The notes beneath the pieces are model-generated. The model was not told the DNA's origin. It worked only from the letters and a program-made list of their open reading frames with translations, and ran no database searches. Shown one piece after another: positions 12,301 to 14,544 of a stretch of DNA of 64,000 nt. Every line of letters starts with the position of its first letter. The stretch's first letter is position 1. Location: NCBI GenBank assembly GCA_965218555.1, contig OZ244625.1, forward strand, positions 3,708,968-3,772,967, given 5' to 3'. This DNA comes from Bryobacterales bacterium. Its GTDB lineage: Bacteria; Acidobacteriota; Terriglobia; Bryobacterales; UBA6623. A program made the translations under genes and the position numbers.

Positions 12301-13507
12301 CGATCGGAGGACAGGTCCGCGAGGTGATCGAAGAACAGTTCCAAACGGGCCGCATCAACCTGTTGAGTTGCACGACCACTCTCGAGCTGGGTGTCGACCT
12401 CGGAGATCTGGAAGCTATTGTCTGTCGAAATGTCCCGCCCGGCATCGTCAATTACCAACAGCGCACCGGTCGCGCCGGCCGTCGAGCTCAGGCCGCTCCG
12501 GTCGCTCTGACGATCGCGCGCAACGGCAACTACGACCAAGCGATCTTCAGAAAATTTATCGATTACTTGGCAAGCCGTCCTGCCATTCCCTATCTCGCCT
12601 TGGACAACGCCGACTTCTTCCGACGCCACCAAGTCTCAATAATCCTCGCCGGCTTCTTCCGTGAACATATCGCGCTAGGTCACGGATTGGGCGCACCACA
12701 GTTGAAGGTGCTGCTAGGCGAGGATCTGAGTGAAGGCCAAGTCAGCGCGTTTCTCGACCGCTTCCGGATGTGGTCCGAGTCAAGCGAAGGCGTGGAGGCA
12801 TATAGCCGAGCGGGAAGTCTCGTTGCAACGATTCCGGAGCGATTTCGTCAAATTGGATTACAAGGTGAGGACCTCCGGATTCACGCTGTAGAGTCTGTTC
12901 GCAGATTTGTCCATGACGTCGCCACGCGATGGCAACTACTTCAGGAGCGTCGAATGGATGCGCGCGATGCCGATCAAGACGTAATCGCCGCAATCATGCA
13001 GCGCCAACAGCGCAACTTACTCGCGCAATTCCTTGTTAACGCACTTTCCAGGGCCGCTGTCATTCCAACTTATAGCTTCCCTGTGCATACCTGTCGGCTT
13101 GAGATCGTCAAGGACAAAGCCCAGCCCTCGACCCCGTTCGGGGACCTGGAAGCGGAGATTCAGTTGGACCGAACCGCCTTGTTGGCCATTTCCGAGTACG
13201 CTCCCGGAGCGGAAGTCGTCGCAGGCGGACGAATCTGGACAAGCGGCGGCATCGTCCGCTACCCCAATATGTTCATGCCGACTCGGTATTACAAAATCTG
13301 CGATTCCTGCGGACATGTCGGTATCAAGGACAGCCATGACGGGTTCGGGCCGATTTGCCCTCAGTGCGCAGAGGACTGGAGAGGGGCTCGTCGCAAGGGA
13401 TCCTTTATCGAGCCGAAGGGCTTCCTGACGACATACACTGAACGACAAGGTCGGGACCCAGGCTCGACCCGCCTGCGTCAGCGTTCAGCAGAGGAGGCCC
13501 GACTAGT
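9291..13507 (+). pseudogene. giant DExH helicase / DUF1998 gene, 5' part (interrupted by IS481 at 13508)
   Basis: Walker A GTGSGKT (9645-9665), DEIH (10101-10112), IGTSASL, and [35 protein letters not shown]. Cys4 clusters are present (CRNCG...; CVACGS; CGTCG...CPSWKC; CDSCG...CPQC). ORF track residues after ...SAEEARLV are IS-derived. Confidence 0.9.
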
Positions 13508-14453
13508 TGTGGAACCTCAACAGGTTGTCCCCGGTCAGACCGATTCGACTGATGGGCGGGTTGGCTTTAAGACTAGCGTGTGGGCGGTGCCAATTGTAGC
13601 GGTGGAGCCAGTGTCTGAGGTGTTGGGCACGCTGGGTGGAGGTGTGATAGGTGTGGGCGTAGGCCCACTCACGTAGCGCGGTCTGGATGAAGCGTTCGGC
13701 TTTGCCGTTGGTAGGAGGGGTGAAGGGCCGGGTGAAGCGATGGCGTAGGCCGCGTTGGGCACAGCGTGCATGGAAGGCCCTGGAACGGTAACACCCGCCG
13801 TTGTCAGTGAGCACGCGGCGGACGCGGATGCCGAGGCGGTGGTAGTAGTCGAGGGCGGCGGTGAGAAAGGCCGCGGCAGTGGCGGCGGTCTGGTCGGGAT
13901 AGAGCTGGGAGAAGGCGAGGCGGGAGTGGTCGTCGACGCAGACATGAAGGTATTCCCAGCCGGCGCCGGGGCTGGAGTGGCGGCGGTCCCCGGTGACGCG
14001 GTGACCGGGGCGGCGAAAGCGGCCGAGTTTCTTGATATCAAGGTGCAGCAGGTCGCCCGGGTGGGGATGTTCGTAGCGGCGGACGGGCGGCGGCGGGTCG
14101 AGGGCACTAAGGCGAGCAAGCCCCTGGCGGCGGAGGACTCGACTGACGGTAGCGGGCGCCACCCCAACAGTGGCGGCGATCTGGGCGCCGGTCCAGCGCA
14201 GCCGGCGCAAGGCGGTGATGCGGCTGATGAGAGTGGCAGGTATGCTGCGGGGCGAGCGGTGCGGACGCGAACTGCGGTCGAGCAATCCGTCCGCGCCCTC
14301 AGCCCGATAGCGGGCCACCCACTTGCGCACCGTGCGTGCGCAGACCCCGAAGGCGCTGGCCACCGCCTTCGGGGTCTGGCCCTGGTCGAGAATCCGCCGG
14401 ACGACAGCGGCTCGACTCTGCGGCGTCAACTTGGCATTCTGATGGATGTTCAC
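13503..14453 (-). CDS. IS481-family transposase (rve integrase core), 316 aa
   Basis: [25 protein letters not shown] (HTH) ... DIKKLGRF ... TDNGGCYRS ... [13 protein letters not shown] (DDE). The stop codon lies in the flanking CTAG. Confidence 0.9.
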
Positions 14454-14538
14454 TTGGTCCTCCTTCCGGGAAACTTTGTGCTTGGTACCCTCAGTTTCCT
14501 CGGTTGGGACCGAGTGAACAACCTATTGAAAGATCACA
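13508..14538 (-). mobile_element. IS481-family insertion sequence, copy 1 (1031 bp)
   Basis: Ends are TGTGGAACCTCAACAGGTTG... and ...CAACCTATTGAAAGATCACA (imperfect IRs). Flanked by aCTAGt (13502-13507) and cCTAGt (14539-14544). Same length as 41959-42989, and the encoded ORFs are identical. Confidence 0.9.
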
Positions 14539-14544
14539 CCTAGT

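Follow-up and report, generated by a model that had tools for sequence, protein, structure and literature searches.

A stretch of 64,000 nucleotides from the genome of a Bryobacterales bacterium (contig OZ244625.1, here C1:3708968-3772967; referred to below as the window) carries a two-gene operon of Druantia type III-like character, by analogy a putative anti-phage system, and the second gene of this operon, druE, which encodes a large helicase, has very probably been split by a recent insertion of an IS481-family insertion sequence (IS). The genome is a single contig of 5.78 Mb, and positions given without a contig name are those of the window.

The removal of positions 13508-14544, by which 13507 is joined to 14545, gave a reading frame of 5970 nt, that is 1989 codons with only the terminal stop, and the translation passed through the junction as ...SAEEARLV followed by TRAPYHRYEETDLVG, as the initial annotation of this stretch had proposed. 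The junction peptide AEEARLVTRAPYHRYE is conserved in ten full-length homologues. More than 100 full-length homologues of 1950-2010 aa, with DEAD, YjiV_N, Helicase_C and MZB domains, were returned when the rejoined protein was used to search a database; the closest of them were 87-89% identical, and the alignment with the best match, a protein of 1988 aa, contained one single-residue indel only. The split had been described as clean and the helicase as otherwise free of lesions, and both statements held, additional frameshifts having been looked for and none found.

Uninterrupted alleles, the search for which had been recommended at the outset, were found in several related loci. Two syntenic loci, L122 and L125, were reached in assemblies of the European Nucleotide Archive (ENA) through close homologues of the protein encoded upstream of druE (the partner protein). 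On the 5.28-Mb contig of L122 the order of genes (GFO/IDH/MocA oxidoreductase, partner, 1989-aa DruE, PIN/VapB, FG-GAP) is that of window positions 2408-19237, the rejoined DruE and the L122 DruE align without a gap at 92.8% amino acid and 93.4% nucleotide identity, and the blastn segments between the window and L122 end exactly at 13507 and 14540. On the 81.8-kb contig of L125 the neighbourhood is the same, down to the DUF3179 and EVE genes, and the DruE, of 1991 aa, is intact; the DruE of L039 (88% amino acid identity) is also intact. Allele L126 is continuous across the IS481 site, and no other allele examined was split at this position. Among the genomes of forty relatives no close druE was found, the best being a 46% match (G024) with three stop codons in its span, and a scan of the JGI metagenomes with the 3' fragment gave only relatives of 66% identity.

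The 5' fragment of the gene matched Pfam DEAD (2.8e-20) and Helicase_C (3.3e-10), scored 471 bits on the PADLOC model DruE1 and 443 bits on DruE3, and had as its best PDB match the 2108-aa helicase 9tu7_Y (4.9e-57). The 3' fragment matched Pfam MZB, formerly DUF1998 (8.3e-11), at its residues 130-211, scored 118 bits on DruE1 and 88 bits on DruE3, and found its best structure match in residues 1513-1717 of 9tu7_Y. Judged by these matches, the gene is a clear DruE, a helicase of the YprA family. The insertion site has a zinc ribbon (CxxC...CxxC) on one side and the MZB module on the other; the earlier placement of the site inside the DUF1998 region had to be abandoned, the Pfam MZB match starting 130 residues downstream (residues 1536-1617 of the rejoined protein). 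The C-terminal region of the 3' fragment weakly matched the C-terminal region of PADLOC ZorD, which is described as a Mrr-like nuclease (6.8e-9), and the last 317 residues of DruE gave no Pfam match, PLD included, at E<=1.

The insertion sequence and its target repeat

The transposase scored 325 bits on the NCBIfam model NF033577 (IS481 family; cut-off 224) over profile positions 2-284 of 284, in agreement with the family given in the initial annotation, and matched Pfam LZ_Tnp_IS481 (2.5e-20), rve (2.3e-16) and rve_3. The ends of the element are TGTGGAACCTCAACAGGTTGT and TGTGATCTTTCAATAGGTTGT, the latter being the right end written as its reverse complement, and both start with TGT as is usual in the IS481 family. 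The extent of the element, 1031 bp, was reproduced by a search of its own genome, which contains 29 full-length copies, each aligned over positions 1-1031 and sharing the same boundaries. Three of these are 100% identical, namely the copy in druE, that at window 41959-42989 and that at C1:2162745, and the first two encode the same open reading frames, as had been noticed before; nine further copies are at least 99.5% identical (12 in all with the identical trio), and the remainder range from 94.8% to 98.4%. The second copy of the window disrupts a PSCyt2/PSD1 (DUF1549/DUF1553) gene. The 316-aa transposase frame is kept in 25 of the 29 copies, each time closing on a stop codon supplied by the target repeat; in the druE copy this stop, TAG, is the reverse complement of 13503-13505, the CTA of the left repeat.

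With IS481 and IS1002 of Bordetella pertussis and ISLxc2 and ISLxx4 of Leifsonia xyli the element has in common a lone transposase of the DDE type, about 316 aa long, in which a leucine-zipper/HTH region at the N-terminus precedes an rve core, and with the known members of the family a size of about 1.0-1.1 kb, inverted repeats starting with TGT and insertion at NCTAGN with a 6-bp duplication. As in B. pertussis, the copy number is high and genes are disrupted. The preference of the family for NCTAGN is documented, and a transposase stop supplied by the target is already known for ISLxc2/ISLxx4 (PMC2516522). A comparison with plasmids by megablast gave no match to the element, which at 95% identity or more was also absent from the 25 related genomes searched (best DNA match 70%); the closest transposase outside its own genome, found in a scan of genome contigs from which that genome was left out, was 65% identical. 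The element is evidently an active and new member of the IS481 family.

The usual flank of the copies is a 6-bp direct repeat N(C/T)TA(G/A)N, which is perfect in 13 of the 29. The flanks reported earlier for the druE copy, aCTAGt and cCTAGt, were reproduced, although the two hexamers are not identical: ACTAGT and CCTAGT agree at five of six positions, unlike the perfect duplication of the family. The empty site in the intact allele L039 reads GCC CGA CTA GTA ACA AGG and is identical to the rejoined window over these 18 nt; therefore the ancestral target was ACTAGT and it is the right repeat that holds the altered base, the one in contact with the IS end. This base occupies the wobble position of an arginine codon, which is variously CGA, CGC or CGG in the alleles; the change is therefore silent whichever repeat is kept.

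Imperfect repeats were found in 8 of the 12 youngest copies (at least 99.5% identity), six of these eight differing only at an outer N, and in 6 of 15 older ones; nearly all differences fall on an outer N of NCTAGN. Since the mismatch is commoner in the youngest copies than in the older, it is not a signal of age, and the distribution suggests that imperfect repeats reflect the transposition process, for example the carry-over of a base from the donor flank or a variable stagger, rather than decay. In this respect the element differs from the known members of its family, most of its young copies having an imperfect duplication with the mismatch at an outer N; in the druE copy, the one case resolved, the altered base is that beside the IS end, and no description of this was found in the literature. 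Recombination between two IS copies as the source of the imperfect repeat was ruled out for the druE copy, whose flanks are contiguous within one gene, and a later point mutation in the repeat was judged unlikely, only 0.02-0.07 changes being expected in 12 bp under the open-frame bound on divergence given below. The features are collected in Table 1.

Table 1. Coordinates of the insertion sequences, target repeats and genes; positions refer to the window except in the last line
Feature	Position	Strand	Remarks
Partner gene, 1108 aa	5977-9303	+	intact; DruH-like position and predicted architecture; stop overlaps the druE start by 13 nt
druE 5' fragment	9291-13507	+	codons 1-1405 plus 2 nt of codon 1406; DEAD/DExH and Helicase_C core
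Left target repeat ACTAGT	13502-13507	.	ancestral sequence, unchanged
Transposase open reading frame, 316 aa	13503-14453	-	GTG start behind GGAGGA; last codon spans the IS end, stop within the target repeat
IS481-family insertion sequence (druE copy)	13508-14538	-	1031 bp, 66% G+C; imperfect terminal inverted repeats starting TGTG...CTCAAyAGGTTGT (inverted-repeat alignment)
Right target repeat CCTAGT	14539-14544	.	first base, touching the IS, differs from the ancestral A
druE 3' fragment	14545-16297	+	starts with the third base of codon 1406 and continues through 583 codons to the stop; MrfA-type Zn-binding (MZB/DUF1998) domain
IS copy 2	41959-42989	-	same sequence as the druE copy (100%), 28.4 kb from it in direct orientation; repeats GTTAGT/GTTAGG
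IS copy 3	59782-60812	+	inverted orientation, 3 mismatches, perfect GCTAGC repeats
IS4-family element in L126	1614-3077 (L126 contig)		1.46 kb; Nterm_IS4 and DDE_Tnp_1; inverted repeats CAATACCCTTCAC; 7-bp repeat GCTAGCC

Age of the insertion and its consequence for DruE

The statement of the initial annotation that the disruption looks recent was borne out by several observations, the first being that the inserted copy belongs to the youngest, identical group of the genome. The ratio of nonsynonymous to synonymous substitution rates (dN/dS) of druE between the window and L122 was 0.185 overall, and the same value of 0.185 was obtained upstream and downstream of the IS. At sites where three outgroups agree, the lineage of the window has 19 private substitutions, compared with 19 and 41 in two intact relatives. 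Random substitutions in druE would create a stop codon in 3.7% of cases; with no disruption seen in 5970 nt, the neutral divergence accumulated since inactivation is at most about 0.2-0.55% per site (95%), a bound which takes indels as 5-20% of the substitution rate and is valid only if the fragments are free of selection. Set against the synonymous distance to L122 (dS 0.19), this is no more than a few percent. In absolute terms, too, we infer that the event was recent.

The data are very probably accounted for by the transposition of an active IS481-family element into ACTAGT at codon 1405/1406 of druE, which took place recently and on the terminal branch leading to the present genome. The insertion separates the helicase core from the MZB/DUF1998 module and the C-terminal domain. 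The 5' frame continues for 56 codons into the IS, to a stop at 13676, and the core would gain the corresponding IS-encoded tail of 56 residues; its product would lose everything from about 130 residues before MZB onward, equivalent to about residue 1480 of the 2108-aa E. coli protein. In E. coli Druantia III the helicase activity is essential, and reports conflict on the need for the C-terminal PLD-like domains. The split DruE would have lost its function, and the defence function of the operon would most likely be abolished. The insertion leaves intact both the partner gene and, downstream, the convergent VapBC pair; as druE closes the operon, no effect on either is expected.

Several points weigh against a recent and inactivating insertion into a Druantia-like gene. 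Gene conversion can keep copies of the IS alike, so that their identity dates the event less reliably than it seems to. The target repeat is imperfect, at one position in six. A preprint finds the PLD-like C-terminal domains of E. coli DruE dispensable (10.64898/2026.05.12.722862), and the split lies near the natural DrmA/DrmB boundary of DISARM, by analogy with which the pieces may retain residual activity. The junctions are known from the assembly alone, so that heterogeneity of the population or a consensus error at the junctions is possible, although a target duplication is not something that mis-assembly yields. Finally, the partner is not recognisable as DruH by sequence.

Chance, selection and other explanations

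The insertion into druE may be an ordinary hit of a site-specific element or the outcome of selection. The tetranucleotide CTAG is about 7-fold under-represented in the genome (3024 sites, 0.52/kb, against some 20,400 expected from base composition), while the operon (5977-16297) contains 1.4-1.5 CTAG/kb, about three times the genomic density, at a G+C content of 57.2% compared with 61.1%. Nine of the 3024 sites (1.5/kb) are located in druE, which puts the probability of one or more hits on the gene among 29 insertions at about 8%, even before lethal sites elsewhere are allowed for; a neutral hit has this prior probability because the operon is enriched in CTAG about 3-fold. For an IS specific to CTAG, a foreign operon of low G+C content and rich in this motif is therefore by its nature a preferred target. 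The window contains three copies of the IS, with 0.32 expected (Poisson P about 0.004), and is therefore a stretch tolerant of IS.

It is tempting to speculate that the inactivation was positively selected, the system being costly, autoimmune or a barrier to a useful mobile element, so that cells with the IS in druE outcompeted the rest. Only about four of the 29 copies lie well within long open frames, these being druE, a 1160-aa frame at C1:2037512, the PSCyt2/PSD1 gene and a 369-aa frame, and in gut bacteria defence genes are repeatedly hit by IS (PMC10592638). A second orthologous allele was also found to be broken. L126 (ENA ERZ25072076 ctg148517_2x_l), a metagenome contig of 6958 bp and 2x coverage, pieces of which share a 90%-identity protein cluster with the 5' fragment, has 90-94% nucleotide identity to the druE of the window and is interrupted at about codon 816, between the equivalents of window positions 11735 and 11741, by an IS4-family element; two frame changes are present in the contig as well and may, at this depth, be errors of sequencing. 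Two of the five alleles seen are thus disrupted, at different codons and by IS of unrelated families (IS481, IS4), and druE has therefore been hit at least twice independently. The pair is compatible with selected loss and also with the ordinary turnover of a CTAG-rich accessory gene.

Against selection stand the neutral hit, which at about 8% is not improbable, the abundance and tolerance of IS in this stretch, the purifying selection on druE up to the insertion (dN/dS 0.185), the three intact alleles and the 2x coverage of L126. The selected loss of a costly or autoimmune defence system is a conjecture, to which we would give perhaps one chance for every three that it is mistaken.

A stronger form of this proposal, which we consider distinctly doubtful, regards the IS knockout of druE as a recurrent and selected off-switch, which excision between the 5-6-bp repeats might even undo, or which might be tolerated because the split, near the natural DrmA/DrmB boundary, leaves a two-piece helicase with residual activity. 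On this view the two hits at CTAG sites of a CTAG-rich gene, made by unrelated IS families, would be due to selection on the cost of defence and not to chance.

It is very improbable that the insertion is old, its copies having been homogenised by gene conversion and the pieces of druE having been kept open as a functional split protein similar to DrmA plus DrmB of DISARM. The mismatch in the target repeat is at first sight a sign of age, and helicases of the YprA type are naturally split into several genes (PMC12458937). An open frame running from a GTG at 14336, within the IS and 203 nt from its right end, continues in frame into the 3' fragment (14336-16297) and would give a product of 653 aa; the NCBI/ENA annotation of the 3' fragment has a product of 558 aa with a start further downstream. 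A scan of 13300-14800 for promoters and terminators found none, which gives no support to an outward promoter driving the 3' fragment. Moreover, the mismatch is a feature of the youngest copies more than of older ones (8/12, 6/15), no other allele is split at the IS481 position, and the lineage-specific substitutions show no excess, nor the deficit required to argue for continued selection.

That the junctions are an artefact of assembly or consensus, or that the insertion occurs in a minority of cells only, is scarcely credible: a 1-kb repeat in 29 copies is a classic source of mis-joins, but here the two flanks are parts of a single gene and fit together to the base, the NCTAGN duplication of its own family encloses the element, and in a genome resolved as a single 5.78-Mb contig a mis-join between IS copies would bring unrelated flanks together.

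With a recent IS481-family insertion as the preferred explanation, the locus offers a clean and datable natural knockout of a Druantia-like helicase, accompanied by intact syntenic orthologues and by a second, independent IS knockout in a related population, and it is usable as a natural experiment on the cost and the speed of turnover of large helicase systems. It also illustrates how a foreign operon rich in CTAG becomes a preferred target in a genome that avoids this motif. As in the IS-mediated inactivation described for gut Bacteroidia (restriction-modification and KAP NTPase genes; PMC10592638), a mobile element disrupts a defence gene and different insertions recur across populations; unlike those cases, the present one comprises a single assembled genome and one contig of low coverage. 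The disruption of defence genes by IS is well known, and as an ordinary case of it the locus leaves current understanding unchanged.

An older copy of the IS at C1:2037512-2038542 (98.4% identity, perfect CCTAGC repeats) splits the 1160-aa frame into 393 and 767 aa; by eye, the frame resembles an outer-membrane protein of the TonB-dependent-receptor type. Together with the PSCyt2/PSD1, DUF3179 and FG-GAP genes, such TonB-receptor-like proteins give no more than a hint that the lineage is an environmental one.

The operon and its surroundings

The initial annotation had spoken of a candidate defence system, and of the two components of Druantia type III the first, a DruE that is a YprA-family SF2 helicase with an MrfA-type Zn module, was found by PADLOC, by Pfam and in the match to 9tu7_Y. 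An upstream DruH was not found by sequence homology; the size, position and predicted architecture of the partner are DruH-like. The partner gene stands directly upstream of druE in every related locus examined, with amino acid identities of 78% in L039, 85.5% in L122 and 48% in L041, as well as in L125 and in the Ralstonia megaplasmid locus L123, whose counterpart was aligned by hhalign with a probability of 99.6%. Its dN/dS value relative to L122 was 0.247.

No match to the partner was obtained in PADLOC, Pfam, NCBIfam or the PDB sequences. As a yardstick we used the canonical Druantia III of a 4.9-Mb E. coli record (NZ_CP134663.1), filed as a plasmid in PLSDB but evidently a chromosome, where it adjoins mdtM and consists of a DruH of 1096 aa, scoring 1830 bits on PADLOC DruH3, and a DruE of 2114 aa. 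The 11 PADLOC DruH models matched by the canonical E. coli DruH gave no match to the partner even at E<=10, and the hhalign comparison of its 33-sequence profile with that protein gave a probability of 0.2%.

An AlphaFold (AF2) model of the partner from the 33-sequence alignment (predicted local distance difference test 82, predicted template modelling score 0.75) contains an N-terminal helical domain, an array of beta-sandwiches (residues 258-784) and a C-terminal helical domain. The published E. coli DruH, of 1119 aa, starts with a globular domain, which is followed by six Ig-like subdomains and a C-terminal domain (10.64898/2026.05.12.722862). Foldseek against the PDB, a fold library without a DruH structure, returned generic tandem Ig/FnIII arrays only. 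Given its size, position and predicted architecture, the partner may still be a very remote relative of DruH.

The operon shares with Druantia type III of E. coli and Mycolicibacterium smegmatis the succession of a protein of about 1100 aa and a YprA-family helicase of about 2000 aa with a DExH core and an MrfA-type Zn module, and the predicted domain layout of the partner matches that published for DruH. It differs in that the partner has no PADLOC DruH match, in that the helicase scores slightly higher on DruE1 than on DruE3, and in that the C-terminal 317 residues of DruE gave no Pfam PLD match; some DruE proteins are without C-terminal PLD-like domains (10.64898/2026.05.12.722862). Because the DruE is clear and the partner has no detectable sequence similarity to DruH, we call the operon Druantia type III-like, a DruE helicase with a DruH-like but sequence-unrelated partner, and this label is preferable to the more general one used at first, of which the helicase part stands. 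The operon may be a member of the 'Druantia type III-like / III-B' branch, which is kept separate in PMC12458937.

Three further features of the surroundings and of the genome were noted. Copies 1 and 2 (13508-42989) are identical and directly oriented, at a distance of 28.4 kb; homologous recombination between the two could remove the 3' fragment of druE together with VapBC and about 25 kb of chromosomal genes. A gene at 2404-3615 on the minus strand, some 2.4 kb upstream of the operon, encodes a protein of 403 aa with a C-terminal EVE domain, a modified-base reader fold, and its position is kept in L122 and L125. At C1:1197325-1200477, on the minus strand, there is another large frame for a YprA-like helicase (1744 aa open), whose helicase motifs are 41-43% identical to those of druE; it may be part of a different defence system, and a counterpart of 1733 aa is present in a genome of the same genus (G006).

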